Positions 1,244-42,246 of a DNA stretch of 64,000 nt are shown in pieces. The stretch covers positions 6,736-70,735 of the forward strand of contig CAKOOC010000003.1 of assembly GCA_934098375.1 (NCBI GenBank), given 5' to 3'. Numbering within the stretch: the first letter of the stretch is position 1; every line of letters starts with the position of its first letter. A program made the position numbers and the translations under genes. This DNA comes from an uncultured Bacilli bacterium. GTDB taxonomy: Bacteria > Bacillota_I > Bacilli_A > RF39 > UBA660. The notes beneath the pieces were generated by a model, which saw nothing but the letters and a program-made list of their open reading frames with translations, was not told the DNA's origin and searched no databases.

Positions 1244-1265
1244 ACCATCATTTCCTTAAACTATA

Positions 1266-2215: not shown

Positions 2216-2273
2216 AAGTTCCTGCTATGGTCGGAATCACCGTTTTTTCATACAAGTCTTATATTCTTATATA

Positions 2274-2681: not shown

Positions 2682-2695
2682 CTCTTATTCACCTC

Positions 2696-19834: not shown

Positions 19835-21631
19835 CTATAAACCGCCACCTGCACCAAACGAATCTAACTCTTCTTGAGTTACAACAACATTAATTCTCAT
19901 TCTTCTATTTCCACATACAAATAATGCATCACCCTGGCTATATGACTTAATACTTTCTTTTTCATTATCATTTAAATCAATTAATTTAGCCAAATCCTCA
20001 ACTGCTTGCTTTTTTAACCCCATTACTAAGTAATAAGAAGCATTATCAAAAATTGCTTTACCATGCATTATTACATTATCAGCCGCAAAATCTGTAGGTT
20101 GCTGTGTGATTATAATTGTTCCTGTATTATATTTACGGCTTCTTCTTTGTATTTGCGCTAAAAATTCGGCACCAAGTTCATTTCTTGCTGAAAGAAGAAC
20201 ATGAGCTTCATCCACATACATAACTGTATTAGTTGATTTATCTAAGCATAATCCCCACGCATATTTTAAAATGTTAAAGAATAATGCATTTCTTATATTT
20301 TCATCACTATTCATTAATTCTTTAATGTTAAATACAATAAATTCACTATCTGTTTGAAGAGTTGTATGACCATTAAAATAATACCTTAATTCTTTTACAA
20401 AAGGTCTTACTCTAAGTTCTAATCTTTCCATTACATCTTTTTCTCTAGTAGCTTCTGGCATTGATAATAATTTACCTTTAATCGTTGCATAAACATCATC
20501 AAATGTAGGATAATCCTTACTAGTTAAATGACTAAAATCACTCTCAAAACTAATTCCAAATCTTTTATAAGTATCTTGTACAACTTCACTAAACATAGCA
20601 AGTACATCATCTTCAATGGCTGGATAATAATATTTCATAAAAGCCTTTAAAGATTGAAGAGTTCTTGTTAAAACGGTATAACCTAAACCATCTGCTAACT
20701 CATCTTCATCAGCATCATATACAACTTCTAAAGGATTTATAATCCCATATTCTCCACCTTTACCAAGATCAATAAAATCTCCACCAAAGTTTTTAGTCAT
20801 TTCTTCTAATTCGCCTTCAGGATCTATAGCAATAATTTTACAGCCATTTCTAATATGAGTTCTAAGCATTAGTTTTGCCGCTGTACTTTTACCAGAACCA
20901 GAAGAACCTAAAATAATTAAGTTAGCATTATTTCTGTTATGTTCTTTTTTTATTTGATATAAAAATTGGTTAAAAAGCACTACCCCGCCAGAAAAGTCAA
21001 CACCAAGTAAAGTTGCTGAACCAGGATCTTTAATACTATCAAAGATAAATGGATACATAGCCGCAATTGTTGGACTAGGTATTGGAATACCAACTCTATC
21101 TTCTATGTCTTGTTTAGGGAAAATTGGAAGCATTGATTTTAAAACCTTTTCTTGTTCAAACATCATCGGAATGCCTCTCATTCCCATTGCATCTAAGAAG
21201 TTTCTAAGTTGCATTTTTTTATTATTTAGTTCTTCCTGTGTATCAGCTAAAATCATTAAATGCATTTGAAAATCAAAAATTCGAGATTGCGTTGCAGCAA
21301 GCATTTGAACAAAAGACTCTAATGATTCATAATCTTGTCTTATTCTTTCTTGTATAGTACGGTCATTTTCCTTTTGATATCTAGCTTTTAAATCAGCTAT
21401 TTCTTTATTAATCATTCTACTCATTGTTGAAAACTCGATAGGAATATGTTTAACAACAACTTTTACTCCAGGAATTTGCGTAATATTAGATAAAAAACCA
21501 GGGCCAATAACTTTAGGGTAACTAATAACTGTTAAAATCGTGGCATACTTATCACTTACAAAAAACTCATTTATACTCTTACTAAAGTCAATTCCTTTAG
21601 GAGCAATTTCACTTTTAAATATATTAGACAT
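19835..21631 (-). CDS. virB4: VirB4-family T4SS ATPase, C-terminal 598 aa (ATPase part) of a split gene
   Basis: Walker A is GSSGSGKSTAAK and Walker B is VMYVDEAH. Also RKYNTGTIIITQQP. The start lies inside an ATGTCTAA 8-nt overlap with the upstream ORF. Confidence 0.85.
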   Translation of the reverse strand: MSNIFKSEIAPKGIDFSKSINEFFVSDKYATILTVISYPKVIGPGFLSNITQIPGVKVVVKHIPIEFSTMSRMINKEIADLKARYQKENDRTIQERIRQDYESLESFVQMLAATQSRIFDFQMHLMILADTQEELNNKKMQLRNFLDAMGMRGIPMMFEQEKVLKSMLPIFPKQDIEDRVGIPIPSPTIAAMYPFIFDSIKDPGSATLLGVDFSGGVVLFNQFLYQIKKEHNRNNANLIILGSSGSGKSTAAKLMLRTHIRNGCKIIAIDPEGELEEMTKNFGGDFIDLGKGGEYGIINPLEVVYDADEDELADGLGYTVLTRTLQSLKAFMKYYYPAIEDDVLAMFSEVVQDTYKRFGISFESDFSHLTSKDYPTFDDVYATIKGKLLSMPEATREKDVMERLELRVRPFVKELRYYFNGHTTLQTDSEFIVFNIKELMNSDENIRNALFFNILKYAWGLCLDKSTNTVMYVDEAHVLLSARNELGAEFLAQIQRRSRKYNTGTIIITQQPTDFAADNVIMHGKAIFDNASYYLVMGLKKQAVEDLAKLIDLNDNEKESIKSYSQGDALFVCGNRRMRINVVVTQEELDSFGAGGGL

Positions 21632-22181
21632 TAGTCATCACCGTCCCATATTCATTTTTTGCTCCCCCATTTAAGAAGTTCTGCAATAAAAACTTCAAAT
21701 CTTCATCACTAGTCTGTCTTGATATCATCCCAATTGATGCTAAATTACTAATTAAAGTTTGAATTCTTTTTTGAACAACCTCTAATTTTTTATCTCTAAA
21801 TAGAATAAAATATTCCGTATCAACAACGTTAATAGCGCTACTTTGAAACATTTCTGCTTTAGACATATCCTGACCTATAATTTTTCTAATTGTCTGTGAT
21901 GGTGCATTATCAAATTGAAGTTGTAAATTGGAAATATATAAGTTTATATCAACTGGTCTATCAGCAACTATTAACCAAAATTCGTAATTAATAGTATTAT
22001 AAAAGTTTCTAAAATTAAATATAATATTATTTTGCGTCTGATAATCTAAAATAAAGATATTCTTAGGCTCAATCTTAATTCCTGTAACATAATAATTATT
22101 ATCAAGAATTATCATTCCATTTTGTATAGTTTTTACTGGTATCCAATCTTCAGTATATTTACTTTGATTGATCTTTGCCAT
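21624..22181 (-). CDS. VirB4 N-terminal domain encoded as a separate 185-aa ORF
   Basis: EDWIPVKTIQNGMIILDNNYYVTGIKIEPKNIFILD resembles the N-terminus of Firmicutes VirB4/TcpF/Orf16-type ATPases. Combined, 185+598 aa approximates a full-length VirB4. Confidence 0.6.
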   Translation of the reverse strand: MAKINQSKYTEDWIPVKTIQNGMIILDNNYYVTGIKIEPKNIFILDYQTQNNIIFNFRNFYNTINYEFWLIVADRPVDINLYISNLQLQFDNAPSQTIRKIIGQDMSKAEMFQSSAINVVDTEYFILFRDKKLEVVQKRIQTLISNLASIGMISRQTSDEDLKFLLQNFLNGGAKNEYGTVMTNV

Positions 22182-22482
22182 AATTAATGCACCATCCTTT
22201 CCAATAGTATGTTCTTCTATTTGTATAATATCTATAAATATTTGTAAGCATTGTTACAACATTATGCTGATTAGGTATCGGTAAAACCAAAAAGGTACTT
22301 ATAAGAGCCGGTAACAAGACAATTAACGCACCCTTTAAAGTTTCAACGGATATTGAAAACATAAATATTAGTGTTATCAATAAACCAGTTCCAAATATTA
22401 CTAAATCTAACTTTGTAAAAAAACCTAATATCAGCATTGACTTTTTGGAATTTGCTGGTATCAAAAAATTATTATTACCCAC
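22159..22482 (-). CDS. VirB3/PrgI-like small membrane protein
   Basis: 107 aa with two TM helices, located directly upstream of and overlapping VirB4. GTG start with RBS AGGAGA. Confidence 0.55.
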   Translation of the reverse strand: MGNNNFLIPANSKKSMLILGFFTKLDLVIFGTGLLITLIFMFSISVETLKGALIVLLPALISTFLVLPIPNQHNVVTMLTNIYRYYTNRRTYYWKGWCINYGKDQSK

Positions 22483-22497: not shown

Positions 22498-22917
22498 TTA
22501 TTTCATTTCAAAAATTTCTAACTTCTGAAGTTGATCACTACATTTTTTGTAGTTTAAATAATAATCTAAACCAGAAAGAAATTGTGAAATGCTTTGTGGA
22601 ACTTGTAGTCCTAGTTTATTAGAAGTCATATAATTTTGAATTAAGGATTTATTAAGTTCCATCATTGTATCTTTTATAATTTCTGGAAATTTAGTTTTCA
22701 GTTCGTCAACTAGTCTTCCAATAAGCATCTCATATTCAGCATCAATTCTATCTAACATCATTATTTCTTGTGCATCTGGCAAATTCATTTGAAAAACACG
22801 AGCTTGCTTAACTTTTTTTGCAGTTTCAATATCTTCAATTTTACTCATTTCAATAGTATTGTACATTAGTAAAAATCTTACAACATAATCTTCACAAAAA
22901 TCTTTTTCACTCATCAT
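22498..22917 (-). CDS. Hypothetical cytoplasmic helical protein (139 aa)
   Basis: ORF overlaps the upstream VirB6-like gene stop by 4 nt. No motif recognised. Confidence 0.4.
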   Translation of the reverse strand: MMSEKDFCEDYVVRFLLMYNTIEMSKIEDIETAKKVKQARVFQMNLPDAQEIMMLDRIDAEYEMLIGRLVDELKTKFPEIIKDTMMELNKSLIQNYMTSNKLGLQVPQSISQFLSGLDYYLNYKKCSDQLQKLEIFEMK

Positions 22918-25784
22918 TTTTTCTTTTCACCACTACTTTCCTTTTTCTTAGAATTAAATGCAGCAAGTTCAGAAACATTATAAGCAGAAGCCATTGATTT
23001 TCCTAACTGTTCAAGAATTTTAACTGTTTCCACAGTAATAGGATCATTCCCTCTTATATCAGAGAATACACCATCTAATGCAGCTTGACATTCATCTAAT
23101 GACGCTGTAGGTGTTAAATTTAATAACTTTCTCATGTCATTATTATAAATAGCAGCTTGAGATACATCATTCATTTTTCTAATATCAGAAAGTATTTCGT
23201 TAGTTACTTCTGGACTACAAGCATATCGAAGCGTTTCTCTATCTTTATTAAGAGCAGTAACCTTAGCGTCATATTTTTTACTATCGGTATCTGTTTTAAT
23301 ATCAGCAATTTGTTTAGCTTCCGCAGCGCTAATTGCTGATATAGCTTGATTATACTTATTAGTTAAATCCGTGGTTGCCTTCGCCGTATTAGCATCAACA
23401 GTACTATAACTGTCATTGATTTGTCTAACGTCATTATCAGCGTTTTGTTTAACTTGAGTGATCTTCACTCGTTTTTCAGCATCACTTAATGTCGTATCAT
23501 TATTAATATTATCAATTAAAAACTGTGCTTCATTTTTAACAACATCGATAACATCCGTCACATTAGAACTATTTAACCTAGTAATTTTTCGCTCTTTATC
23601 CAATTCCAATTGTTTTTTCGCAGATGCCTTAGCTTCCGCAGTTAATGAAACATCATTGTCAATTTTAATACATTCATCTTTATATCTTTGTTCAAATACA
23701 CTACTATAAGTAGTAGTTATATTAGATACAGCATTTCGTTTTTGCAATGTAGCTGCATCATTTACTGCTGAAATATCATTATTATAATTTATTGTTTGTT
23801 CTAAAACACTTTGTTGAGTAGTATTATAAACAGCACTTTCTCTCGCTGCTTTTTCCGCTTTAATATCATCATCTTTAGCTTTCATTCCTTTAAGACCCGT
23901 AATCCTATCTACAGAACCTTTTGCTTCCGCAATCAAAGCTTTATCAGCAGAAACTTTTGCTGTTGTAGATGTTTTTAAAGCCGTATTAATTTTACTAACA
24001 ACCCATGAACCATAATCTTTTACAGGGTTTCCGTTTTGATCCAAAACACCCTCTTTATCAGGAACTGAGTCATACCATTCAGCTACAGCGCCCTGTACTG
24101 ATGGGAAAACATATGAACCAGTATTAAATCTATTTTTAATTGCACGTTGTCTTCTTGCTGTACGTTTTATATTTTGTTCTTCATATCTCTTTTCATTTGC
24201 ACTTGCTTGAGCACCAATTGTATCACCTAGCTTGTCAATATCAACATTTCCTGCCGCTACGCCACGAGCAACGGTGCCAACTCCTCTAGCAGCAGTTCTT
24301 AATGCAGCACCACCAACTCCTAAAACCGTTGAAGCAGCATGAACAGCACTATCAGCAACTCTACCAGCACCACTTAAATTCTCACGGTACCTTCTTCTTC
24401 TTTCATTAAATGCATCTCTTTCATCTTTTCTTTTTAATCTTGCATCATATTGATCAGTACCCTTAACAAAACTAGCAATTCTATTCCATCCCCATTTAGC
24501 AACTCCTGCACCTAGCGCACCAGCACCAACAGCAGCTCTTTTGCCGTATTCATTCTCATTAAGTTTTCTCTTAATACTCATTTGTGGAACTTTTATGCTG
24601 AATAATTCTTCAATTAATTTTGGTGCATCTTTTGCAAATTGTAAAACACCTAAAATAACTATTACAAAAGCAATTAATTTTATAAATCCATTTTCACTAC
24701 CAGAAAATACTGAAGCAATAGGTCCATTTTCAGAACATAATAATTGTATTGTAAATAAGGCAAAATAAATAACTAATAATCTTTCAAACACCATTAAGTA
24801 TGTTTTAGATAATTCCTTTAGCCATTTATCGAATGATCCACCTTTAGGTTTAGTAATTCGCAAAATTACAGGAACTGGTGCAATTAATTGTAAAATACCT
24901 AATTTAGCAACCCTAACACCCATATCAAGAGCAAAAGACAATAATAAATATGCTGCAACAATACCAGCAGCAGTACTTATAACTGGCAAATACTCAATCT
25001 TATTACCAATTTCATCAATAAAAGTTGCAGATCTAAGTCTGCTCATATTTCCACAGACTAATGAGCTATCAATTGCACGAACATAAGAAGCACATATTGG
25101 TTCTGAAGTATTACTTTTGCAATCATTATATGTATAAGTTTTTCCATCAATCACTGGATGAAAAAAAGCTGTGAAAATCGTGATTGAAAGGTCGTAACCG
25201 GCGTATTTTGAATCAAAACTACCGTTACTAGGATTTGAGCATTTATATTTAGATAAATTATCTAATATTCCTCCTGTACCTTCCTTAGACGAATTATCAG
25301 TACTACTGGTATTAGTATCAATTGATGCACCAAATACAATTCTAGATAAAACATTTGTATCTAAAACTCTGTTTTGTATTCTCTGTAAATAATTAAACCC
25401 AGTTGGTAGTAAAGCAACTATTATAAGTGATATTATTAAATTCTTTATGATACCAAGCATTGAACTATCGCTTTTATCATCTAATGTATCTGGATTTATG
25501 ATTAATTTAAGTATATTATAAGCAAGAACAAAAAGCATAACGATACCTAAAATACTATAAATTCTATTAGTCAACATTTCAAATTGGCTCGAACCACCAT
25601 CAGTACTTCTAGAAAAAAGTTGAACTTGAGCTACTTTATTAAAAATTTGATAAAAAACACTTACAAGATAATATACAATCCCATCAAGAAATAATAAAAT
25701 AGAGTATAATTTACCCATGAACCAATCGCTTATACCGGCCACAACGTCATCAGCAACGGACATATTTAATAAAAACTTTATCAT
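22914..25784 (-). CDS. VirB6/TcpH-like polytopic T4SS membrane protein with a long Ala/Gly-rich and coiled-coil C-terminal extension
   Basis: About 6-8 TM helices in the first roughly 400 aa. A GAGALGAGVAKWGW segment follows, then about 500 aa of polar helical repeats. The gene lies between the pilin-like genes and VirB3/VirB4. Confidence 0.55.
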   Translation of the reverse strand: MIKFLLNMSVADDVVAGISDWFMGKLYSILLFLDGIVYYLVSVFYQIFNKVAQVQLFSRSTDGGSSQFEMLTNRIYSILGIVMLFVLAYNILKLIINPDTLDDKSDSSMLGIIKNLIISLIIVALLPTGFNYLQRIQNRVLDTNVLSRIVFGASIDTNTSSTDNSSKEGTGGILDNLSKYKCSNPSNGSFDSKYAGYDLSITIFTAFFHPVIDGKTYTYNDCKSNTSEPICASYVRAIDSSLVCGNMSRLRSATFIDEIGNKIEYLPVISTAAGIVAAYLLLSFALDMGVRVAKLGILQLIAPVPVILRITKPKGGSFDKWLKELSKTYLMVFERLLVIYFALFTIQLLCSENGPIASVFSGSENGFIKLIAFVIVILGVLQFAKDAPKLIEELFSIKVPQMSIKRKLNENEYGKRAAVGAGALGAGVAKWGWNRIASFVKGTDQYDARLKRKDERDAFNERRRRYRENLSGAGRVADSAVHAASTVLGVGGAALRTAARGVGTVARGVAAGNVDIDKLGDTIGAQASANEKRYEEQNIKRTARRQRAIKNRFNTGSYVFPSVQGAVAEWYDSVPDKEGVLDQNGNPVKDYGSWVVSKINTALKTSTTAKVSADKALIAEAKGSVDRITGLKGMKAKDDDIKAEKAARESAVYNTTQQSVLEQTINYNNDISAVNDAATLQKRNAVSNITTTYSSVFEQRYKDECIKIDNDVSLTAEAKASAKKQLELDKERKITRLNSSNVTDVIDVVKNEAQFLIDNINNDTTLSDAEKRVKITQVKQNADNDVRQINDSYSTVDANTAKATTDLTNKYNQAISAISAAEAKQIADIKTDTDSKKYDAKVTALNKDRETLRYACSPEVTNEILSDIRKMNDVSQAAIYNNDMRKLLNLTPTASLDECQAALDGVFSDIRGNDPITVETVKILEQLGKSMASAYNVSELAAFNSKKKESSGEKKK

Positions 25785-25798: not shown

Positions 25799-26668
25799 CT
25801 ATTTAATGCAAGTTGAATAATCACCGCTATCAATTAAATCCAGTACCAAATTTAAAAATGTCGGAAGTAACCATAAAGCTGCTATCAAAAATAATCTTTT
25901 TATTAATCTTTTGTTTGCTTTTTTTAATTCGTCTGCATTTTTCATAAATAAAACTGCCAAATACTCATAAACTGATATAACTGCCGCAAGAAGTGGTGCA
26001 AATATTCTTATCATATCAAGTATTGATTGTAAGTCACCTTTAAAATCACCTAAAATACTGCAATCAGCATTATTACCATTATCGCTATCTATAATATCAG
26101 ATCCAGATGTATTATTATTGCTATTATTGTTATTATTAGTTCCTGAATTGTTTGAATTATTATTACCATTAGAATTATTTCCAGAAACCACATTATTTAC
26201 TGTGCTGGCATATGAATGACAAGAACCACCAGACCATTTACACCCAGCTTCTTTACAATTGTATTCCAACGATTTATCTGTTGCCATTATTGATACACAT
26301 GTATTATCTTTAATATTTCCACCTCTAGGCGTTGTTATAATAACATCTACATCAGATTTTAATGCGGCTTGAGCCACAACGCTTCCTTCTATATAATAAT
26401 TAACATTACATTTATAATTTCCATTGGTTAATTTTCCACTTATATTAACTTCCACATCTAATTTTGTAGAATTTACCGAATTAAAATTTGCTATAGTACT
26501 TCCATTACATATAAGAACAGCTTCTGTAATATTTTTCTTTGGGTTAAAATCTATATACATTTTTCCCTCATTTAAATCATAAGTTATAATATCTTTTGCA
26601 AATACAATACTCTTAAATGAAAAGAAAGACACTAACACCAAAATTATAATATTCCATTTTTTTATCAT
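25799..26668 (-). CDS. Fusion protein: secreted Cys-containing N-terminal domain, Asn/Gly/Ser linker, and a C-terminal VirB2-like two-helix T4SS pilin domain
   Basis: Signal peptide MIKKWNIIILVLVSFFSFKSIVFA, with RBS AAGGTGA before the ATG at 26668. The C-terminus CSILGDF...APLLAAVISVYEYLAV...DELKKANKRLIKRLFLIAALWLLPTFL...DYSTCIK aligns with the ORFs at 26779-27129 and 29065-30048. Confidence 0.6.
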   Translation of the reverse strand: MIKKWNIIILVLVSFFSFKSIVFAKDIITYDLNEGKMYIDFNPKKNITEAVLICNGSTIANFNSVNSTKLDVEVNISGKLTNGNYKCNVNYYIEGSVVAQAALKSDVDVIITTPRGGNIKDNTCVSIMATDKSLEYNCKEAGCKWSGGSCHSYASTVNNVVSGNNSNGNNNSNNSGTNNNNNSNNNTSGSDIIDSDNGNNADCSILGDFKGDLQSILDMIRIFAPLLAAVISVYEYLAVLFMKNADELKKANKRLIKRLFLIAALWLLPTFLNLVLDLIDSGDYSTCIK

Positions 26669-26753
26669 AACTAATTTCACCTTAAATTCCATTTAAACAA
26701 TTGTATTTGACAGAAAAATCCTTTAAATACACTATTCCATTAAAAATTATAAC

Positions 26754-26781
26754 ATAAAAAAAAACAACAGTAAAGTTGTTA
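26754..26781 (-). terminator. Rho-independent terminator or attenuator right after the stand-alone pilin-like gene
   Basis: On the minus strand: AACAAC-TTTACT-GTTGTT followed by a run of T. It overlaps the stop codon. Confidence 0.6.
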
Positions 26782-27129
26782 TTTTTTCCAAGGATATAAA
26801 ATACTATTACGGCAAGTATCGAAACCAGCAGCTTCTTCAGCAGTTGAATAATCACTTAATGTACCAAATAACCATAAAACAATTGATGGTATAAAGAATA
26901 TTACTACGCCAGAAAGTGCACGCATACCAAGACTTTTAGCAGACTTTTTAATTTCGTCATCCTTACTAGCAACAACTGCTTTACCAAAATCAAACATACC
27001 ATAAGCAATAATTAATAATGGAATTGCAATTTTAAATATAGTTAATATCCAACCAGCAAAAGTTAAAATTTCTTTGGCATTTGTACAAAAATCGCCAACA
27101 TCCCAACCACTTAATAATAAATTACTCAT
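26779..27129 (-). CDS. Stand-alone VirB2-like (Gram-positive T4SS pilin family) two-helix protein; candidate major pilin
   Basis: 116 aa. TM1 is AGWILTIFKIAIPLLIIAYGMFDF. The basic loop is KDDEIKKSAKSLGMR. TM2 is ALSGVVIFFIPSIVLWLF. Cys residues flank both helices. The gene is followed by its own terminator. Confidence 0.6.
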   Translation of the reverse strand: MSNLLLSGWDVGDFCTNAKEILTFAGWILTIFKIAIPLLIIAYGMFDFGKAVVASKDDEIKKSAKSLGMRALSGVVIFFIPSIVLWLFGTLSDYSTAEEAAGFDTCRNSILYPWKK

Positions 27130-27204
27130 AAAATTCTCTCCCTTACAACACTTAAATTATATATTATTTTAATAACTATTGTCAACAAAATTATCGAAAC
27201 TTGC

Positions 27205-28251
27205 CTACTTATCAGTAGATTTCTTTAATTTAAGTTTACCTAATAATTCATCAATAACTTGAATTCTTTCTTTTCTTTCATCAAAATTTGGCATATTGAA
27301 AAATACTTTCATTTTTGTCTCATATTCCAAATTACTTATTTCATCATCTTTAATCGCACTTCTATTTAAAATAATCTTTCCATTACTAGTTTTTTCTAAT
27401 ACCCCCCTATTAGATTTAAATAGTTTATTTAATCTTATCGTTCCTGGTTCAATTAAGTACAAAATATCCGTACAAATTCCCTTAGCATCATTACCATTTA
27501 AATCTACAACAATTACGCTTTCGTCCTTAAGTACATTTATTTGCATCTTTAAATCTTCTATAGAAGTTGCCATTATAAGATGATCATCTCTAAAATAAAC
27601 TCCATCTTGTTTATTCATTTCTATTCCTTTAACTTTATAATGATAACTAAGATGTTTTACCATCATATACATTAAAGTTGTAGCACCTGCATGCTCCGTT
27701 ATATTTTGAATACCAATTATTACTTTATCAGTATCCTTTTCTTCTTCATTTTTTTTGCCAAACAAACTATTAAATAATCCTCTATTTTTACTTCCAAAAT
27801 TATTTGGTAAATCACTCGCATTTGGTTTATCATTATCAGTATTTGCAGAAGACACATTACTATTATTATTTGTTTCTACTAAATATTTTTGAACATCTTG
27901 AAGACTATTTGGATGATCAATTAAATATCCGATTGAGCTAGCATTCTTAGTAAAATTATAATATCCTTTTTCTACTAACTTTGATAAATAATTAGCACTA
28001 TTAACAAGCTCACTATTATTTAAAAGTAATATAACTCTGCTAGGTTCAAAAAAAGATAAGAAATCAAAAAGAGATGTAAAATCATAATAATTTCTAATAG
28101 CCGTTATATCAATAATAACTTTGTTATAAAATAGATTTACAAATTCTTGTTCTATTTCACTTCTATTAAATTCACCTTCTAATGTTTTAATAACATCTAC
28201 TTGAAGTTCACTTAATACTTTACTATTTTGATTTTTAATTATTATATTCAT
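27205..28251 (-). CDS. TadZ/CpaE-like protein: receiver-like N-domain plus a ParA/MinD-like domain with a degenerate P-loop
   Basis: The beta-strand pattern IIIK, VIIDIT, RVILLLNN is CheY-like. The C-terminal part is VIIGIQNITEHAGATTL where KGGxGKT is expected, then VIVVDLNG, ILYLIEPG and IILNRS. Confidence 0.4.
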   Translation of the reverse strand: MNIIIKNQNSKVLSELQVDVIKTLEGEFNRSEIEQEFVNLFYNKVIIDITAIRNYYDFTSLFDFLSFFEPSRVILLLNNSELVNSANYLSKLVEKGYYNFTKNASSIGYLIDHPNSLQDVQKYLVETNNNSNVSSANTDNDKPNASDLPNNFGSKNRGLFNSLFGKKNEEEKDTDKVIIGIQNITEHAGATTLMYMMVKHLSYHYKVKGIEMNKQDGVYFRDDHLIMATSIEDLKMQINVLKDESVIVVDLNGNDAKGICTDILYLIEPGTIRLNKLFKSNRGVLEKTSNGKIILNRSAIKDDEISNLEYETKMKVFFNMPNFDERKERIQVIDELLGKLKLKKSTDK

Positions 28252-28264
28252 TTTATCATCTCTT

Positions 28265-28705
28265 CTAGTTTACATTATCATTTGCAAAATAAACTGCTTT
28301 AGTTTCACCCGTTATTGGAAAAGTTAAAAGATCACCAAATACAGGTAAATCTAATCTAAAAAATACTCTAACATAATAACGCGTACTAGGAATGGTTGTC
28401 TCATCATTGCGCACTTTTGAAATGCAGTATCTAAATTTATTACTTTGAGAATTTGCTCTACCATAACCGGTTTCATTTGAAGCGCAAGAACCAAATACAA
28501 AATAACTCGAACCATTTAAATACGTAGTTATTTCATTCTCCGTATCACTATCATGACCTTCATTTTTCTCTATTATATTTATAATACCATTTTTTACTTT
28601 AAAAGCCCGTGAATAATTAACAGATATAGCTAAATATCCGGTAAACAATACAATAAATACTATTACTAAAGAGAAAATCCAAGTTCCACCTATTGACTCT
28701 CTCAT
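28265..28705 (-). CDS. Small N-terminally anchored TadE/TadG-like (pseudopilin-like) protein
   Basis: MRESIGG followed by TWIFSLVIVFIVLFTGYLAISVNYSRAF, resembling the TadE/G-like N-terminal region. It is a paralog-like match to 2274-2681 at the N-terminus. Confidence 0.35.
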   Translation of the reverse strand: MRESIGGTWIFSLVIVFIVLFTGYLAISVNYSRAFKVKNGIINIIEKNEGHDSDTENEITTYLNGSSYFVFGSCASNETGYGRANSQSNKFRYCISKVRNDETTIPSTRYYVRVFFRLDLPVFGDLLTFPITGETKAVYFANDNVN

Positions 28706-28717
28706 ACCTTTATTTTT

Positions 28718-28993
28718 CTATCCATTTGACTGTTGATTTTGATTAGTATTATTATTTGTTGTTTTGTCCGGACAAATTAAGCCAGTTTTGGCTTTTCCAT
28801 CATTATCTAAATATGTACAAGAACATGTTTTACCATTGCAGCCTGAGCAAGAAATTGCATTTGCACATTTAGTTGAATTAATAATATTTGTTTTGATTGA
28901 TGGCCAAATAATCGTTGTAAATAACACCCCAATCGCAGCAATTGCTACTACAGCAATAGCAGTCATACTTAATTCTGAAGAAGCTTCTTTCAT
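28718..28993 (-). CDS. 91-aa single-helix Cys-rich protein; possible minor pilin-like subunit
   Basis: MKEASSELSMTAIAVVAIAAIGVLFTTIIW, then CANAISCSGCNGKTCSCTYLD...LICPD and an Asn/Gln tail. Confidence 0.3.
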   Translation of the reverse strand: MKEASSELSMTAIAVVAIAAIGVLFTTIIWPSIKTNIINSTKCANAISCSGCNGKTCSCTYLDNDGKAKTGLICPDKTTNNNTNQNQQSNG

Positions 28994-29064
28994 TTAATAA
29001 TTCCTCCTATCCTATTCTTACTATATAATTAGTATATAATATATTTTTTGTATTTTCAAGTTGC

Positions 29065-30048
29065 TTATTTACAACTCTTTGTTGGATCAAATAAACAGTC
29101 AATACAAGTTATATATTCACTATCCCCTGATATAAAATTTAATGCTGTCTTTAATATTGTAGGTAAAAAGAAAATAATTACACCTACTAAAACTCTATTT
29201 CCCAACATTATTGCTTGCTTTTTTAAATCATCCGCTTTTCCTGATGAAACAGCTTTATAAAAATCAAATGATCCCATTAATATAATTGCTAAAGGTGTTA
29301 TAATTTTAATAATAACAATTGTATAACCAGCTATTTTTAATCCTGGAGATATATCTTTACAAAAAGTTGAACTATTTAAAGGTGTTTTATCTCCAGAAAC
29401 ATTATCAGTAACATCATCAGTTCCCGTTGAAGTACTACCACCACGGCCACTTCCACCACCAGAAAATCCACCATTACCAGTGCCAGAACCATTATTTCCA
29501 GTTCCATTATTTCCAGTTCCATTATTTTCTGATTTCGGATAATTTGGAATTGATGTATCCGAGTAGTTAGTACATGTTTTATTTTCATAATAACAACCGG
29601 CACTTTTACAACTCTTTTCTAAGTCAGTATCATCAATATAACTACATGCATTTAATTTTGGATCACTCGGTTTCGTTATATTTACATATACATCAGACGA
29701 AAAAACTTTTTTGGTTGTATCAGAAACATTATTGTTTTTATCACCATAATTATAATAAATATTACAGTAATGCTCTCCCATCGTTAATCTATCTGAAATA
29801 TCAAAAGTAGTTTCAAACTCAGATACTGGGTTATCCATTGTTTGTAAAAAGATTTGATTATTATCACAATATACAGCAGCTTTAACAATTTTTTTACTAC
29901 TTAAAAAACCCGTATTAAAATATACATGCATTGTTCCCTTTGTTAAACTATAAGTAAGAGTGTTACTCTTAGCTAATGTAGTAGTTTTAAAAGCAAAAAA
30001 AGATAAAAGCATTACAATTAATATCAAATATTTATTTTTATTATTCAT
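29065..30048 (-). CDS. Second fusion protein: secreted N-terminal domain (paralog of 25799-26668), Gly/Asn/Ser linker, and a C-terminal VirB2-like pilin domain
   Basis: Signal peptide MNNKNKYLILIVMLLSFFAFKTTTLA. The N-domain aligns with the 297-aa protein: TYSLTKGTMHVYF vs TYDLNEGKMYIDF, and CKSAGCYYENKTC vs CKEAGCKWSGGSC. The C-terminus is CKDIS...ITPLAIILMGSFDFYKAV...DDLKKQAIMLGNRVLVGVIIFFLPTIL...SEYITC. Confidence 0.6.
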   Translation of the reverse strand: MNNKNKYLILIVMLLSFFAFKTTTLAKSNTLTYSLTKGTMHVYFNTGFLSSKKIVKAAVYCDNNQIFLQTMDNPVSEFETTFDISDRLTMGEHYCNIYYNYGDKNNNVSDTTKKVFSSDVYVNITKPSDPKLNACSYIDDTDLEKSCKSAGCYYENKTCTNYSDTSIPNYPKSENNGTGNNGTGNNGSGTGNGGFSGGGSGRGGSTSTGTDDVTDNVSGDKTPLNSSTFCKDISPGLKIAGYTIVIIKIITPLAIILMGSFDFYKAVSSGKADDLKKQAIMLGNRVLVGVIIFFLPTILKTALNFISGDSEYITCIDCLFDPTKSCK

Positions 30049-31237
30049 AATCATAATCCCCCGTATTTCCATTATCATTATTATTTTTTAATTTAGTTAT
30101 AACCTTATAAGCAACAACTCCGCCAATACCAATTACAATTATAATAATAAAAACTAATGCCATATTTCCCGATTTTTTTATATTAAATACATAAATATTG
30201 TCTTTATTATCACTGCCTGTAACTACAATATTAATTTTACTTCCATTTTTTAAATTAGAATTACCTATTATTTCATATGATGCTTCTTCATCTTCTAATG
30301 TAATATTAAAATTTAAAGTTTTAACATTTTTATCTATTTTTAAACTATAACTATTTTTATCAGAATTAAAATCAAGCTTATAACCCTCTATGGTTAATTT
30401 TTCTATTTTATTACTACTAGGTTCTTCTTCTTCATATATTAAATTAATAGTATATTCTTTAGTATCCCCATTTTCGGCTGTAACAGTTATCACTATTGGC
30501 GTATTTATATTAATATTTTCATTATTTTTAATATCAACCTTACTTTTATTAGATTCTGGTACAGCTTCAACCTCAATTCTTGTAGCTTCCTTACTAATTT
30601 CAATTGTATATGTTGTTTTTTCTCTATCAAAAATAATTATACCTTCTGAAAACTTAAGTGATGATAGATATGTATTATTATCTTTAACTACTGGAACTTC
30701 TGTTGTCGGCTCAGTTGTTGGTTCTGACGTAGTTGTTGTTGTAGTAGTCGTTGTCGTTTTTGTTGTCTTAGTTGTTCTACTAGTTGTTCTTCTTTTAGTT
30801 GTAGTAGTGGTTGTAGGTTTAACCGGCTGCGTTGTTGGCGTTGTTGGTGCCACATAAACAGCCCCACTACTAGTTCTATTACAATCAAAATAAGATACAG
30901 ATGTACAATATTTATAATTGTTTAAACCTGGTGTACATGATCCACTATAAGCATCACAACCACTATTAACTTTAATTATATACATATCTTTATTACCATT
31001 TGAACAAGTTACAATATTAGGTGTAATAAAATAAGCAATATGCCATGTACCATCAGGACAAGATGCATTATGACACTGTCCATAATAACCATAAGAATTA
31101 CTAGTAAAAATACCATCCTGAAATTTAACACACGCATCATAAGTTGTATTACTACTTACTGGTGTATTAACATTAGCCGCATAAACATTATTACTAAATA
31201 AAAATAATAACAAAAATAATAATACTTTTCTTTTCAT
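30041..31237 (-). CDS. Surface protein: Cys-rich N-module, Thr-rich linker, two cadherin-like beta-sandwich modules, C-terminal TM anchor
   Basis: Signal peptide ending VYA. Linker TTTTTKRRTTSRTTKTTKTTTTTTTTTT. The modules are NTYLSSLKFSEG...YTIEISK and IEKLTIEGYKLDFNSDKNSYSLKI. Anchor MALVFIIIIVIGIGGVVAY. Confidence 0.6.
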   Translation of the reverse strand: MKRKVLLFLLLFLFSNNVYAANVNTPVSSNTTYDACVKFQDGIFTSNSYGYYGQCHNASCPDGTWHIAYFITPNIVTCSNGNKDMYIIKVNSGCDAYSGSCTPGLNNYKYCTSVSYFDCNRTSSGAVYVAPTTPTTQPVKPTTTTTTKRRTTSRTTKTTKTTTTTTTTTTSEPTTEPTTEVPVVKDNNTYLSSLKFSEGIIIFDREKTTYTIEISKEATRIEVEAVPESNKSKVDIKNNENININTPIVITVTAENGDTKEYTINLIYEEEEPSSNKIEKLTIEGYKLDFNSDKNSYSLKIDKNVKTLNFNITLEDEEASYEIIGNSNLKNGSKINIVVTGSDNKDNIYVFNIKKSGNMALVFIIIIVIGIGGVVAYKVITKLKNNNDNGNTGDYDYE

Positions 31238-31249
31238 ATAAACCTTCCT

Positions 31250-31278
31250 TAAAAAAAGATACCAGTAATGGTATCTTT
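31250..31278 (-). terminator. Rho-independent terminator or attenuator after the 219-aa surface protein gene
   Basis: On the minus strand: AGATACCA-TTAC-TGGTATCT followed by TTTTTT. Confidence 0.6.
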
Positions 31279-31328
31279 CCTTTATAGATCCAAGACCTAT
31301 ATTAATAATATCATAAAATTATTAATAT

Positions 31329-31988
31329 TTAAATCTTTTTAAAATTATTTTTCTTATTAACTAAATATAATGCCACGCTTACAACAAAAATACTAGGAAT
31401 TAATATTTTATAATAATCTTCTACTCCTGTTTTTGGGTTATTACTATTTCCATTACCATTAGAACTAGTTGTTGTTATTGTGGTGGTTGGATTAGTCGTA
31501 TTATTATCATCTTTGCTTCCACTTGCATATGCTGAACCATCTGCTGTATATGCACAATCGTAAGAATATAATCTAGTTGCAAATGCGTAAGCTCCTGTAA
31601 CACTATCTAATTTAGCAGAATCAGGTGCACATGATGCATCTTTAGCAAGTGATAAAGTTTGTCCAGCACTCGAATCAGCACCACTACTTACTACCGTACT
31701 TTTAGGATTTGTATTTCCATTTTCACATTTTACTTTACTAGCAAAACTATTATCAATATAATGAACATTTTTACTATTCTCACATTTTATAGTGATACAC
31801 TCTAAATAATATCCAGCTGTAGCATTAGTATATCCAGAGTTTTCATTTTCTGCATTTTGACATAATGATTTAATATTTGCATTATCGGCAATCGCACTAC
31901 CAATAGTTTTAGTATTACCATCAACTGCTGCATTTACAGTTAATGGTAATAAAATTAAACTAATTAAACTTAATACTATTTTTCTCAT
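31329..31988 (-). CDS. Secreted Cys-rich protein with a candidate NPKTG sortase sorting signal
   Basis: Signal peptide ending VNA. The N-module is paralogous to that of the 398-aa protein (AGYYLECITIKC...VKCENGN vs YGYYGQCHNASC...VTCSNGN). The C-terminus is NPKTG, then a hydrophobic stretch, then KKNNFKKI. Confidence 0.5.
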   Translation of the reverse strand: MRKIVLSLISLILLPLTVNAAVDGNTKTIGSAIADNANIKSLCQNAENENSGYTNATAGYYLECITIKCENSKNVHYIDNSFASKVKCENGNTNPKSTVVSSGADSSAGQTLSLAKDASCAPDSAKLDSVTGAYAFATRLYSYDCAYTADGSAYASGSKDDNNTTNPTTTITTTSSNGNGNSNNPKTGVEDYYKILIPSIFVVSVALYLVNKKNNFKKI

Positions 31989-31993
31989 CTTAA

Positions 31994-34963
31994 CTACCCT
32001 TCTAAATAATCTTTCTTTTTCTTTTTATTTCTTTTAATTATTATTATTATGCTCGCTCCTACTAAAATTACTCCTCCAACAATTGCTGATGTTATTTCTA
32101 ACTTTTTGTTATATTTATCTTTTTCAATATTAATTGAGTAAACTTTAGTGTCACCATTTTCAGCAATAACTTTTACTTTAACAATACTAAATGCTGTTAA
32201 ATCATTATTACCATACATATAAACTTCTGCTCTATCATCACTAGGAGTTGCTGTAATAAGTAGTGTTCTTTCTCTCTTAATTTTAACACTATAATCAAGA
32301 ACATCTGGTTTAAAATCAAGATTATAACCCTTAATAGTTAATGTATTTAAATCTGTATTATTAGCAACTGTTAAGCCGCTTTCCTTTCTTATTACATAAA
32401 TTGTATATATTTTTGTTTTCTTATTGTTGGTTACCGTTATTTCAATTTGGTTATTTCCAACTCTAAAACCTGAGTCACCAATAATTTTAACTGTTGCATT
32501 TTCGCTTTCGGCAAAAGCATAAACTGGCAAATTTTCTACTTCATAACCAACTGAAACTGTATATGAAGTTGTATCTCTATCAAATACTAAAGATGTTCCC
32601 GGTATACTTAGTGAACTTAAATATGTACTAGTTTTATTATTATCTAAGTCTTCATTAGTATCTTTAACAAAAGTTACTACATAACTTCTAACTATTCCAG
32701 CGGCACTTACAGTTTTTAATACCGCTGATGTTTGATTACTAGTAAGTTCAATTGTTCTTGGCCCAAAACCCGCTACAAAAGCTGAAGTTTTGCTTTCTAA
32801 TGTTCCATTAATTGATACTTTAGTAACTTTTTTAGATACTTTAACTGTATAGTCAGTTATATAAGGATTAAATTCTATTTTACCTGCACTTATTTTAATA
32901 TCACTTAAGAAGTTATTATTATCACGATCATCAACTCTATTTATAATAAATGTATAAGTTCTAATCTTACCTTGTTTATTAACAATTCTAATTAATTGTA
33001 CATTTCTACCATAATTTAAATCAACTGTTCTTGGTTCATAACCTTCAACAAATGAAGCATCATTACTTGTAAGTGTAGCGTAGATTGCCACTTTACTTCT
33101 ATTTACTGTAAGTTCATAACCAGTTTTTAATGAATCAAAGCTAGCTAAAACACTATCATTTTTTAGTGTATTTGATAATCTTACATATTTACTATCAACT
33201 ATATTACTAGTACCGTATGCTGTTGTTTCATCATTTAAAGGTTTTGCTTCAAAAGTATCTGCACCATCAGTACTTTTTACTGAAAAGTTAGTAATAGTTG
33301 TAGTTGTATCTGCATCATATATTCTACTCATTGATGGGTAACTTATACGATCTTTATTATTCATAACCCAAACAAAATAAGTACCCGCCATTTTGTTTTC
33401 TCTTGCAACATAAGAATTATCATTAAAAGCAGTCCATTCAGAGTTTATGGTTGGTTCTAAACCGCTAGAAATATAATAACCCTTAATTCCATATGAACCG
33501 TTATCCGTAGCTGTTAAAGCTATTGTTCCATAACCATCTGCTCTAACAATACTTCCTGTTGATGATACACTTGGTCTTTCTATATAATCACAAGAAACTG
33601 AGTAAGTTACATAACAAGTATTTCCTGTTGCATTTTTACATGTATTTTCTTTTTCAATAGCTGTTTTATTATAATTATTAGCACATGTCACTTTATCTCT
33701 AATATTATCGCCATCATCAGATTTATAATGACCTTCACTTACTTTTTTAAAGCATATTTTATAATTATCATCTTTACCTTTAAAATCAGTTAGTTTAGAA
33801 GTGCTTTTACATGAATCATCTGATGTTGTACTAGTAGAACAAGTAGGTTTATCACGTAATATGTTATTTAAATAAATATATTGTTCTTCACCTTTAATTG
33901 TAACTTTACATTTGCCATCAGTACATCTATCCCCTAAAGATGGTGTTAAGCTAATTTCTGTACCACAAGCTAAGCTCTGTTTTTTTACACTCATACTTGA
34001 ATTAGTATAAGTATTAGTTCCTTCTTTAACATAACCAACTTTAGAAGAACATGAATTACTGTTATCTGTTGTTGATAATTTATCTTTATAAACTTTTGTA
34101 GAAGTTTTAACATCTACACCATTTATTTTAGTAACTGTACAATATCCATTTAAATCACATCTTGTAACATATATTTTATCACCACAATAAATACTTGCTC
34201 CCGAATATCTTGCACCCTCTTTAGCATAGTAATATGCATTTAAATCCTCTTCTACAACATCAGGAATTGGAATTACTTCTGTAGGTGCTGTTGTTTTAGT
34301 TGTTGTGGTTGTCGTCGTAGTAGATGTTGTATTATTAGAGCCACCTCCCGTATTTGTACATAATCCATATACATTAGTACTTACTGTTTTATAACAATAT
34401 TGACCACTTGGATTACTATCACAACTAGTTGCCGTTGCTCCATAAACATTTTTTAAAGTACCACCACTTATTGAACATACACCATCACCATTTGTACAAG
34501 TAAAATTCATTGAAGAAAATCCACTTGGACAACTATATGAACCTGAAGGTGTACTAGGAGTTGAAGGGGTATTTTCACCACCTCCACTTGCTGTTCTTGT
34601 TGCTACAAATACTCTTATTTGATTTGGATTTTGCGGATTAGCAGCATAACATCTATCAGCTAAATAACTACCATAACGAGAGGTGTAGCATTGTGCAATT
34701 GCACTACCTTTGAAAACTACATAATTGTCTGCAGTTTTTTGACAATAGCTATCCACATTTAACGTACAAACGCCAACAATTTGTCCTTTAGATGTTGGTT
34801 CGTAATAATAGTAAGTTGCCGCTATTTCCCAGCTGTCTTTTTCTACTTTTGTTTCATTATTATTCTTACTTAGTTTACTATCATTACTAACAAAAAAATA
34901 ACCTAATGAAAACATTAATGCGCATAAACCAAATAATAAGAATAACACTTTTTTATTTTTCAT
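31994..34963 (-). CDS. Large surface protein: Cys-rich modules, Thr-rich linker, at least four cadherin-like beta-sandwich modules, C-terminal TM anchor
   Basis: The ATG at 34963 has RBS GAAGGAGAG. Repeated modules include TYLSSLSIPGTSLVFDRDTTSYTVSV, LNTLTIKGYNLDFKPDVLDYSVKI and FLSDIKISAGKIEFNPYITDYTVKV. The anchor is AIVGGVILVGASIIIII followed by KRNKKKKK. Confidence 0.6.
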   Translation of the reverse strand: MKNKKVLFLLFGLCALMFSLGYFFVSNDSKLSKNNNETKVEKDSWEIAATYYYYEPTSKGQIVGVCTLNVDSYCQKTADNYVVFKGSAIAQCYTSRYGSYLADRCYAANPQNPNQIRVFVATRTASGGGENTPSTPSTPSGSYSCPSGFSSMNFTCTNGDGVCSISGGTLKNVYGATATSCDSNPSGQYCYKTVSTNVYGLCTNTGGGSNNTTSTTTTTTTTKTTAPTEVIPIPDVVEEDLNAYYYAKEGARYSGASIYCGDKIYVTRCDLNGYCTVTKINGVDVKTSTKVYKDKLSTTDNSNSCSSKVGYVKEGTNTYTNSSMSVKKQSLACGTEISLTPSLGDRCTDGKCKVTIKGEEQYIYLNNILRDKPTCSTSTTSDDSCKSTSKLTDFKGKDDNYKICFKKVSEGHYKSDDGDNIRDKVTCANNYNKTAIEKENTCKNATGNTCYVTYSVSCDYIERPSVSSTGSIVRADGYGTIALTATDNGSYGIKGYYISSGLEPTINSEWTAFNDNSYVARENKMAGTYFVWVMNNKDRISYPSMSRIYDADTTTTITNFSVKSTDGADTFEAKPLNDETTAYGTSNIVDSKYVRLSNTLKNDSVLASFDSLKTGYELTVNRSKVAIYATLTSNDASFVEGYEPRTVDLNYGRNVQLIRIVNKQGKIRTYTFIINRVDDRDNNNFLSDIKISAGKIEFNPYITDYTVKVSKKVTKVSINGTLESKTSAFVAGFGPRTIELTSNQTSAVLKTVSAAGIVRSYVVTFVKDTNEDLDNNKTSTYLSSLSIPGTSLVFDRDTTSYTVSVGYEVENLPVYAFAESENATVKIIGDSGFRVGNNQIEITVTNNKKTKIYTIYVIRKESGLTVANNTDLNTLTIKGYNLDFKPDVLDYSVKIKRERTLLITATPSDDRAEVYMYGNNDLTAFSIVKVKVIAENGDTKVYSINIEKDKYNKKLEITSAIVGGVILVGASIIIIIKRNKKKKKDYLEG

Positions 34964-35017
34964 AAACTCTCCTTCTATCTTCATAATAATTTTAATATAA
35001 AATCATTTAAATAGCAA

Positions 35018-35640: not shown

Positions 35641-35672
35641 CAAAATAAAAACTCTCTAATCTAGAAAGTTTT
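35641..35672 (-). terminator. Imperfect rho-independent terminator after essC
   Basis: On the minus strand: AAAACTTTCT...AGAGAGTTTT (one mismatch) followed by TATTTT. Confidence 0.4.
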
Positions 35673-40318: not shown

Positions 40319-40397
40319 AATTGCACCCCTTTATTTTATACTATTAAAATTATACTACACTTAAAATAAAAGAACAAATGATATTTGTTTTAGCACA

Positions 40398-40438
40398 TAA
40401 AAAAACTATTATAATTTTATTTCATTTATAATAGTTTT
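40398..40438 (-). terminator. Hairpin terminator or attenuator between the lysozyme-domain gene and essC
   Basis: 13-bp arms AAAACTATTATAA / TTATAATAGTTTT overlap the stop codon. A short T tract follows. Confidence 0.45.
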
Positions 40439-41831: not shown

Positions 41832-41842
41832 AAATTCACTTC

Positions 41843-42235: not shown

Positions 42236-42246
42236 CTTTTAATTCC

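Follow-up and report, generated by a model that had tools for sequence, protein, structure and literature searches.

The closest described systems are the VirB2-like pilin arrays found with the type IV secretion systems (T4SSs) of Patescibacteria (Wang et al. 2023, PMC10633639; Quinonero-Coronel et al. 2025, PMC12102498). These bacteria encode chromosomal, MPF_FATA-like T4SSs with arrays of 2-11 pilin genes of the family PF18895 (T4SS_pilin), mostly without a relaxase, and the system is essential in Southlakia (PMC12102498, PMC10633639, PMC12857230). Apart from Patescibacteria, VirB2-type pilins are stated to be absent from Gram-positive T4SSs (PMC12102498 and a December 2025 review, PMC12857230), and the review says the same of VirB5. 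Our literature search found no paper on T4SS pilins of this kind in gut Bacilli, and the TANB77 'pilin' paper concerns type IV/Tad-like pilins with a single transmembrane (TM) helix. Here we describe a stretch of 64,000 nt (hereafter, the window) from an uncultured Bacilli bacterium (RF39; UBA660; assembly GCA_934098375.1, contig CAKOOC010000003.1, positions 6,736-70,735 of the forward strand), in which a two-helix membrane hairpin is encoded three times next to T4SS genes, once as a stand-alone 116-aa protein and twice as the C-terminus of a protein with a secreted N-domain. We favor, with about even confidence, the reading that these three genes encode PF18895-type, pilin-like subunits of a conserved chromosomal T4SS of uncultured gut Bacilli.

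All three genes lie on the minus strand. The stand-alone protein, a candidate major subunit, is encoded at 26779-27129, with the codons of its flanking cysteines C15 and C106 at 27085-27087 and 26812-26814. The downstream fusion (25799-26692) has 297 aa from its first ATG, or 289 aa from the ATG at 26668, which is the likely start given its AAGGTGA ribosome-binding site and the start called in a sister strain (locus L081). It comprises a signal peptide (26594-26668), a six-Cys beta-sandwich N-domain (26198-26593), an Asn-rich linker (26072-26197) and the hairpin (25802-26071), flanked by C211 and C295. The upstream fusion (29065-30078; 337 aa, or 327 aa from the ATG at 30048) has the same plan, with a signal peptide at about 29968-30048, a six-Cys N-domain at 29554-29967, a Gly/Asn/Ser linker at 29377-29553 and the hairpin at 29068-29376; C240 precedes its hairpin and C325-x-x-C328...C336 follows it.

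An earlier note on this DNA had proposed that the three open reading frames (ORFs) share one hairpin, and this held in every comparison. Pairwise BLASTP aligned the 297- and 337-aa proteins over their full length (E = 8e-21), and the 116-aa protein with the C-termini of the 337-aa (E = 5e-19, 49% identity) and 297-aa (E = 5e-5) proteins, while a hidden Markov model (HMM) of the family, searched against the six-frame translation of the window, recovered exactly three hairpin copies and no others even at E <= 10. These results support the three ORFs as true paralogs of one two-TM hairpin domain in a T4SS locus. The motif layout described in the earlier note needs some adjustment: FDF, YEY and FDF, the three basic loops and the xxxP[ST] of TM2 are present, but TM2 of the 297-aa copy reads WLLPT, and in the stand-alone copy the C-flank Cys lies 9 residues past DYST and not immediately after the DY/EY motif. 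A candidate fourth copy at the N-terminus of the VirB6-like protein (PF18895, E = 0.0039) was not reproduced by the family HMMs and was rejected. Several small ORFs of 50-80 aa overlap the paralogs in other frames (for example 26682-26855, minus strand, and 29376-29603); their translations are of the low-complexity kind usual for AT-rich DNA, and we treated them as spurious.

The hairpin proteins have two hydrophobic segments, and the median count of lysine plus arginine is highest in the loop (6), against 1 for the N-flank and 3 for the C-flank. Both fusions carry Sec-type signal peptides, and the stand-alone protein has none. The charge distribution and hydropathy, the signal peptides of the fusions and their Cys-rich N-domains together point to an N-out/C-out arrangement with a cytoplasmic loop, so that the positive-inside topology first proposed, with both Cys flanks extracytoplasmic, is borne out by the predictions. 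Two TM helices, a basic cytoplasmic loop and both ends outside are also the traits of PF18895. The AlphaFold2 (AF2) model of the 116-aa protein (pLDDT 81.6) has a helical hairpin at residues 19-54 and 57-90 followed by short C-terminal helices. In the model of the 337-aa fusion, a signal peptide, beta strands of the sandwich at residues 40-134 (pLDDT 74-89) and a small Cys-rich element are followed by a disordered linker of about 60 residues (174-238) and a helical hairpin (236-316).

To place the hairpin among related genomes, one genome per GTDB species was scanned; this confirmed the family in at least 426 species, all uncultured gut Bacilli, and the best 80 loci were kept. Across all paralog types in these 80 loci, both flanks hold at least one Cys in 207 of the 208 hairpin domains; the remaining domain is truncated where its contig stops. 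Absence of the pair from orthologs, which the earlier note had named as a weakness to look for, was thus not seen, and its conservation is far beyond chance. Among 120 orthologs C15 and C106 are invariant, but most of these proteins have four cysteines (C15 and C106 plus a CxxC...PWxC arrangement), so that the single pair originally described is only part of the family pattern. The additional cysteines correspond to S109 and K116 of the window's stand-alone copy, which has lost this second pair. After TM2, 132 domains have CxxC and one later Cys, 66 have the first Cys alone, and there are no intermediates; the second and third cysteines have been lost only jointly, in several lineages. Because they are present or absent together, the covariation suggests the pairings C15-C106 and C109-C116, and it is from this conservation and covariation that we propose putative disulfides.

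Firmicutes secretomes typically exclude Cys, and the window shows the opposite. Its predicted exported and surface proteins contain 2.16% Cys, mostly in even counts, versus 0.87% for predicted cytoplasmic proteins, a 2.5-fold enrichment. Cys-rich exported or surface proteins include those at 2696-6300, at 28718-28993 (Flp-like, 6 Cys) and at 30041-34984. This even-numbered richness makes extracytoplasmic disulfides plausible, and they look routine in this organism; judging from composition, it implies an active extracytoplasmic oxidative-folding system, as predicted from sequence. Family scans of the window ORFs turned up no DsbA- or BdbD-like gene.

The hairpin family is very large. The 116-aa protein has 383 word-indexed homologs, all from metagenome-assembled genomes of the uncultured 'Bacilli bacterium' type, and a profile search of 1.84 billion representative proteins, clustered at 50% identity, returned 9,536 clusters at E <= 1e-3 and 4,036 at E <= 1e-10. 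NCBI labels the genomes as Bacilli, Tenericutes, Mollicutes or Erysipelotrichaceae, and they derive from the guts of humans, mice, rabbits, chickens and ruminants. When the hairpin protein was searched by tblastn against 72,556 plasmids and 50,697 phage records, there was no match at E <= 1; the family is chromosomal. Among curated families, PF18895 is by far the commonest one matched: 58 of 84 orthologs match it at E <= 0.01 (best 5.7e-6), as do 43 of the top 148 cluster representatives (alignment A5, P0134-P0280) at E <= 0.001 (best 1.1e-7), and a precomputed match is recorded for one protein, P0012. T4SS_CagC is matched by 2 of the 84 orthologs at E of about 1e-3. The PF18895 model (71 positions) aligns with residues 21-87 of the 116-aa protein, which leaves the two flanking cysteines outside the match.

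Directly downstream of the hairpin array lies a VirB6-like gene (22914-25784, minus strand) for an extended membrane protein of 956 aa, which matches the NCBIfam model Mbov_0396, a transmembrane protein of an integrative and conjugative element (ICE), at E = 6e-9; 53 of the 80 loci have such a gene. Next on the same strand come three ORFs in succession, with slight overlaps (19835-22482), which encode a VirB3-like protein (107 aa), an N-terminal part of VirB4 (185 aa) and the VirB4 ATPase (598 aa), and together they tile the single 894-aa Mycoplasma ICE model VirB4_plasma (positions 3-94, 99-280 and 297-891). This three-ORF split is kept in 44-45 related loci. Further genes of the block encode an M23/lysozyme hydrolase, an NlpC/P60 protein and a VirD4 coupling protein of the CD1115 family. 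Among the best 120 of more than 7,380 clusters, the 598-aa VirB4 part is 84-87% identical, which is unusually high for a T4SS ATPase, whereas the hairpin protein is about 55-65% identical among its homologs.

The window VirB4 matches 2,510 Firmicutes-type plasmids at about 30% identity. That VirB4 is widespread on plasmids from which the hairpin is absent indicates a T4SS of the Gram-positive conjugative kind and a hairpin family lying outside known conjugative plasmids. Family scans of the window proteins detected neither a relaxase nor an integrase anywhere in the 64 kb, and the T4SS locus is bordered by housekeeping genes. The best explanation is a conserved, chromosomal, vertically inherited, MPF_FATA-like T4SS locus without a relaxase nearby. 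The VirB6-like and VirB4 proteins are best matched by Mycoplasma ICE models, and the 116-aa protein is weakly matched by the NCBIfam 'MPN385 family' of Mycoplasma pneumoniae (E = 9e-5, 23 bits, cut-off 120), which hints at a relation between the window T4SS and the ICE machinery of Mollicutes.

Gene order around the hairpin is widely conserved: a cadherin-like gene, the upstream fusion, Flp-like, TadE-like and TadZ-like genes, the stand-alone hairpin gene, one or more downstream fusions, VirB6-like, VirB3-like and two-part VirB4 genes, and a hydrolase gene. There are 1-8 hairpin genes per locus. Among the 54 loci with at least 9 kb of downstream sequence, 38 have at least three of the four T4SS genes directly downstream, and 37 of these 38 have at least two hairpin genes. 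Thus, the genomic trait of PF18895 pilins, a paralog array near virB4, is found in the window and in these 38 loci, and is missing from the remaining 16. For comparison, the pilin lies near virB4 in 1,135 of 1,948 Patescibacteria assemblies and away from it in about 40% (PMC12102498).

The stand-alone gene has its own expression signals. A sigma-70-type promoter (TTGACA-18-TATAAT; 27156-27185, minus strand), followed by a GGGAG ribosome-binding site, lies 25 nt upstream and is the sole 12/12 match to the sigma-70 consensus in the region. In 79 orthologous loci a promoter at the same place scores at least 10/12 in 75 (20 at 12/12, 28 at 11/12 and 27 at 10/12). At the other end, a terminator-like element (26756-26785, minus strand) overlaps the stop codon and consists of an A-tract, a CAAC/GTTG stem and a T9 run. 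The hairpin is weak in the window (-2.5 kcal/mol), and a generic terminator scan of the region called no terminator at this gene. An equivalent hairpin and T-run nevertheless follow the gene in 78 of 80 loci, and in 63 of these the folding free energy (dG) is -5 or lower, although the stem sequences differ, so that the suggestion that the stand-alone copy has its own terminator is upheld by the orthologs. The conserved promoter and terminator suggest a self-contained, probably strongly expressed unit within an operon-like block, which is what a major structural subunit would lead one to expect.

The fusions, on the other hand, vary in what they carry. BLASTP, domain alignment and the AF2 model agree with the original description of homologous Cys-rich secreted N-domains of about 130 aa on low-complexity Asn/Gly/Ser linkers; the two N-domains share six conserved cysteines and are 38% identical. 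Foldseek searches with the 337-aa model, which is of low confidence as a whole, gave only generic Ig/FN3/CBM-like sandwiches (E >= 4e-3), and we do not assign the N-domain to a specific adhesin family. The full 337-aa protein has 13 homologs, versus 383 for the hairpin protein. Fusion is common in the family as a whole (106 of the 148 representatives, 93 of the 106 with signal-peptide-like N-termini); fusions span 154-583 aa in length, with the hairpin C-terminal in nearly all. A few carry GDSL-lipase/acylhydrolase or alpha/beta-hydrolase (esterase, Peptidase_S9, DLH-like) domains before the C-terminal hairpin, indicating that enzymes as well as beta-sandwich domains are attached to the hairpin scaffold.

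Comparison with a Hadza-gut strain (L081), whose flanking genes are 99-100% identical to those of the window, revealed that the N-domain is exchangeable. The cassette of the upstream fusion (29494-29915, minus strand) is replaced there by a copy, about 480 nt long (L081:6005-6517), of the N-domain of the downstream paralog (source cassette 26158-26668), with 95% DNA identity overall, a near-identical core, and junctions in signal-peptide and linker DNA. The same mosaic is present in four independent protein clusters (P0125-P0127, P0130). The replacement has the appearance of gene conversion, or of a cassette exchanged between the paralogs. A second difference affects the VirB6-like protein, which has 956 aa in the window versus 799 aa in L081: DNA for the N-terminal 412 aa is 99.8% identical, and the C-terminal part of about 540 aa (22914-24546) has no DNA similarity. 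This C-terminus is a second hypervariable module and is presumably exposed. Together, the cassette swaps and the VirB6 C-terminal replacement indicate that the exposed parts are exchangeable cassettes on conserved scaffolds.

We propose that each subunit inserts as a helical hairpin with its ends outside and its basic loop in the cytoplasm, as the charge and hydropathy signals suggest. The Cys before TM1 would pair with the Cys after TM2, tying the free ends into a pseudo-cyclic subunit, in keeping with their conservation and covariation, and the second local pair (CxxC...C), where present, would close a small C-terminal loop. The 116-aa protein would be the abundant major subunit, made from its own promoter and terminator, and the fusions would be minor subunits that enter the same assembly via the same hairpin, each using a flexible linker to hold a disulfide-rich, adhesin- or carbohydrate-binding-like beta-sandwich outside the cell. 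Judged by what is known of VirB2, VirB4 and VirB6, the neighboring VirB4 and VirB6-like proteins may extract the subunits and polymerize them into a wall-spanning stalk or pilus. The displayed cassettes may recombine between paralogs and strains, varying the binding specificity or antigenicity of the appendage. In its fullest form, the proposal is that gut Bacilli build a true VirB4/VirB6-dependent pilus of the conjugative type through the Gram-positive wall, with a disulfide-pseudo-cyclic major subunit and recombining adhesin or enzyme fusions as decorations, serving a partner-dependent lifestyle as proposed for Patescibacteria and not plasmid transfer; we regard this fuller version as doubtful and offer it only tentatively.

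Several observations weigh against the pilin reading. The 116-aa protein itself scores below the PF18895 cut-off (E = 0.072; 13.6 bits against 26.6) and both fusions have no match; indeed, the window's own proteins fall below every curated cut-off in Pfam and NCBIfam. No Pfam match to PF04956 (TrbC/VirB2) was found in the window protein, the 84 orthologs or the 148 representatives. Profile comparisons by hhalign used two family alignments, with reversed sequences as decoys: against eight annotated VirB2/TrbC proteins, a narrow set from Alphaproteobacteria only, the probabilities of 0.15-0.34% equaled those of the decoys, and hmmsearch and hhalign against TraB of pRE25 did no better than the reversed sequence. 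A Foldseek search of the PDB with the 116-aa model, a type of short hairpin that is poorly discriminated, returned 58 matches (best E = 2.0) that included no pilin and were generic hairpins such as ESCRT-III and HtrII. A PDB sequence search with the family profile returned only noise from TM segments of G-protein-coupled and glutamate receptors (E >= 0.1). The stand-alone subunit lacks the leader peptide of VirB2, TrbC and TraA; it begins 14 residues before its first Cys, and many orthologs begin closer. The hairpin gene adjoins Tad-like genes (56 of 64 loci) more often than T4SS genes (38 of 54), and 16 of the 54 loci have a single copy without any T4SS gene in the next 10 kb downstream. PF18895 is itself a predicted pilin family, we know of no member for which filament formation has been demonstrated, and the filament here is likewise something that we infer by analogy. 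Thus, the 'VirB2-like' label of the earlier note can be kept in a restricted sense: it is justified by topology, context and membership of PF18895 at the family level, and not by demonstrable homology to canonical VirB2, given that the window protein misses the cut-off and that VirB2/TrbC profiles and Foldseek gave no match.

These points leave room for a different role, in which the hairpin is a T4SS-associated membrane module, like TraB of pIP501 or PrgF in Gram-positive conjugation channels, that forms oligomers within or around the channel and stays in the membrane, and the fusions are surface adhesins or enzymes tethered by it beside the secretion machine. TraB of pIP501 has the same mature topology, is essential for transfer, oligomerizes and binds channel proteins (PMC9083827), and its pRE25 counterpart is annotated 'CagC family', the family weakly matched by two of our orthologs. 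Gram-positive T4SSs are also generally pilus-less (PMC12857230), and a C-terminal hairpin behind signal-peptide-like N-termini, with GDSL-lipase-like or alpha/beta-hydrolase-like domains in some N-domains, is what tethering would produce. However, TraB does not resemble the hairpin proteins in sequence, a simple anchor needs no invariant end-to-end Cys pair, and the dedicated promoter and terminator of the stand-alone copy suggest that its product greatly outnumbers those of the channel genes. The arrays, with up to 8 divergent paralogs, resemble pilin arrays (PMC12102498). We consider a membrane module of this kind unlikely, though a serious contender.

The Tad-like genes suggest another possibility. 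Between the hairpin paralogs, and outside their family, sit genes on the minus strand for Flp-like (28718-28993, 91 aa, 6 Cys), TadE-like (28265-28705, 146 aa) and TadZ/ParA-like (27205-28251, 348 aa) proteins. They have no family match in Pfam, NCBIfam or PHROGs scans, and their assignment is based on N-terminal motifs and on homologs in the contiguous Tad cluster of locus L078 (TadA-TadB-TadC-Flp-Flp-TadE-TadE-TadZ; 1-4915). A VirB11/TadA-like ATPase and a CpaB-like neighbor lie about 25 kb beyond the block (140-2087), and a DUF5411 protein is also found near these two (140-2681). The genes scattered in the window and contiguous in L078 thus point to a Tad-type pilus system that is split here and interwoven with the T4SS genes. 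The stand-alone hairpin could then be an accessory or platform component of a Tad-like (type IVc) pilus, with VirB6 nearby merely as part of a shared appendage neighborhood.

In favor of such a Tad role, the three Tad-like genes lie directly upstream of the hairpin gene in 56 of the 64 loci scored for this linkage, and they are the sole appendage-related neighborhood in the 16 solitary loci (L015, L021, L024-L028, L030, L031, L034, L038, L040, L041, L057, L069 and L071; each at ~10000-10400), in all of which but L069 the hairpin gene follows them; the consensus promoter was confirmed in those listed. Genomes such as CAJUPN01, CAKOKD01 and JAGAIS01 are among those with a solitary copy. None of these 16 loci is among the 120 VirB4 matches listed (out of more than 7,380 clusters). 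One of them, L025, keeps the hairpin gene and a 12/12 promoter with no T4SS module nearby. Yet L091 and L092 share its upstream synteny and retain the T4SS, so that the T4SS module has apparently been lost or relocated in the solitary loci. Conversely, in eight loci (L078 and seven similar ones), hairpin arrays of up to 8 genes abut VirB6/VirB4, while Tad genes are 5 kb off or not found nearby; in L078 itself, 5 kb of housekeeping genes separate the Tad cluster from a seven-gene array abutting VirB6/VirB3/VirB4. The hairpin proteins match PF18895 and no Tad, Flp or type II secretion system family in Pfam or NCBIfam, no prepilin-peptidase motif of the G/xxxxEY type is visible in their sequences, and the gene is transcriptionally separate from that for the TadZ-like protein. 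To our knowledge, no Tad system has a hairpin component of this sort, and we judge this role improbable.

As a variant of the main proposal, the cysteines could also be joined differently, with the flanks forming intermolecular, head-to-tail disulfides that link major and fusion subunits into a covalent polymer. Covalent polymerization strengthens Gram-positive pili in the case of sortase pili, and the finding that every paralog has exactly one invariant Cys per extracytoplasmic flank would suit intermolecular pairing just as well. On the other hand, the flanks of one hairpin are already adjacent, favoring intramolecular closure, and the second Cys pair behaves as a local intramolecular one; we give the covalent polymer a small chance, slightly below that of the Tad role. 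An unrelated two-TM family (holin, bacteriocin/immunity or stress membrane protein) whose T4SS location is coincidental is already disfavored and in our view hardly credible: short two-TM hairpins are generic, as the non-specific Foldseek hits and weak Pfam score of the window protein illustrate, but the holin match that the earlier note had flagged as a danger did not appear in Pfam, NCBIfam or PHROGs, nor did any other assigned family, the plasmid and phage records contain no member, the T4SS/Tad synteny is conserved over many species-level genomes, and secreted-domain fusions do not suit such roles. A phage origin was likewise rejected, PHROGs giving only matches of unknown function (E >= 0.009).

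The wider surroundings of the locus are those of an ordinary chromosome. The window has about 27% G+C, with nearly every gene on the minus strand, and encodes PolA, Ffh, EzrA, Fpg, RNase J, SSB, FtsW/RodA and RmuC. Its block of surface and secretion genes holds an EssC-type ATPase, cadherin-like proteins, the hairpin paralogs, the Tad-like genes, the VirB6-like gene, VirB3/VirB4, hydrolases and VirD4. Large cadherin-like surface proteins occupy 30041-34984, and the EssC-type ATPase of a type VII secretion system (T7SS), a 1,548-aa FtsK/SpoIIIE ATPase with an FHA domain, is encoded at 35672-40318. Beside it (35672-42858) are a 464-aa protein with a phage-tail-lysozyme domain and two small helical proteins with no Pfam match. 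As this ATPase lies directly upstream of the surface-protein/T4SS block, a T7SS, a Tad-like pilus and a T4SS all fall within 45 kb.

If the pilin reading is correct, a second, very large group of monoderm bacteria has T4SS pilin arrays, with the many species genomes and thousands of protein clusters counted above. Pilin-bearing, non-conjugative T4SSs may then recur in monoderm bacteria that depend on hosts or partners, and there may be an evolutionary link to the origin of the Patescibacteria system. Two features would be new to T4SS pilins: an invariant Cys pair that possibly replaces head-to-tail cyclization, and natural fusions with swappable cassettes, for which the hairpin may serve as a display scaffold. 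The hosts are common in human and animal guts, where a hypervariable surface appendage could matter for colonization, phage interactions and immune recognition.

In cyclic T-pilin and TrbC, the two ends are joined by a peptide bond; in the hairpin family they may be tied by a putative disulfide, a likeness that we draw by analogy. Like VirB2, TrbC and TraA, the hairpin is predicted to be a two-helix subunit whose basic loop faces the cytoplasm or lumen and whose termini lie outside, it is encoded beside virB3, virB4 and virB6, and it has apparent high expression. Unlike them, it has no profile or Foldseek match, no long leader and a Gram-positive envelope; a TraF-like cyclase and VirB5 were not evident, and no cyclase homolog was noticed. 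An extracytoplasmic, intramolecular disulfide is required, in a BdbDC-dependent manner, by the pseudopilin ComGC of Bacillus subtilis, but ComGC belongs to an unrelated family with a type IV pilin fold, one N-terminal TM helix and a different assembly machine.

TraB of pIP501/pRE25 is also a small two-TM protein with an N-out/C-out topology and a cytoplasmic loop, from a Firmicutes T4SS operon with a CD1115-family coupling protein, and its oligomerization is a further likeness (PMC9083827). It differs in that its signal peptide is cleaved, in lacking the flanking cysteines and in having neither a paralog array nor fusions, and it is plasmid-borne beside a relaxase, whereas the hairpin family is absent from the 72,556 plasmids and has no relaxase in the 64 kb of the window. 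The VirB2/VirB5 (TrwL/TrwJ) arrays of the Bartonella Trw system, as summarized in PMC12857230, are tandem, variable pilus-subunit genes thought to diversify binding or antigenicity. Bartonella is Gram-negative, and there the variation lies in the pilin and tip proteins, whereas here it lies in exchangeable N-domains on a conserved hairpin.

Overall, the resemblance is greatest to Patescibacteria. Shared features are PF18895 at the family level, monoderm and uncultured hosts, a chromosomal MPF_FATA-like T4SS without a relaxase nearby, the presence of VirB3, VirB4, VirB6 and a hydrolase, arrays of divergent paralogs (2-11 genes there, 1-8 here), and a co-occurring system of the type IV-pilus class. 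The window differs in host class (Bacilli, by NCBI labels), in having a VirD4 coupling protein and in its weak PF18895 match. Compared by description only, the Cys pair does not feature in PMC10633639 or PMC12102498, and neither reports fusions to secreted N-domains, which make up most of the representatives here. In our judgment, the hairpin family is the Bacilli counterpart of the Patescibacteria T4SS pilin arrays, distinguished by a putative Cys staple and by fusions that would display domains on the cell surface.

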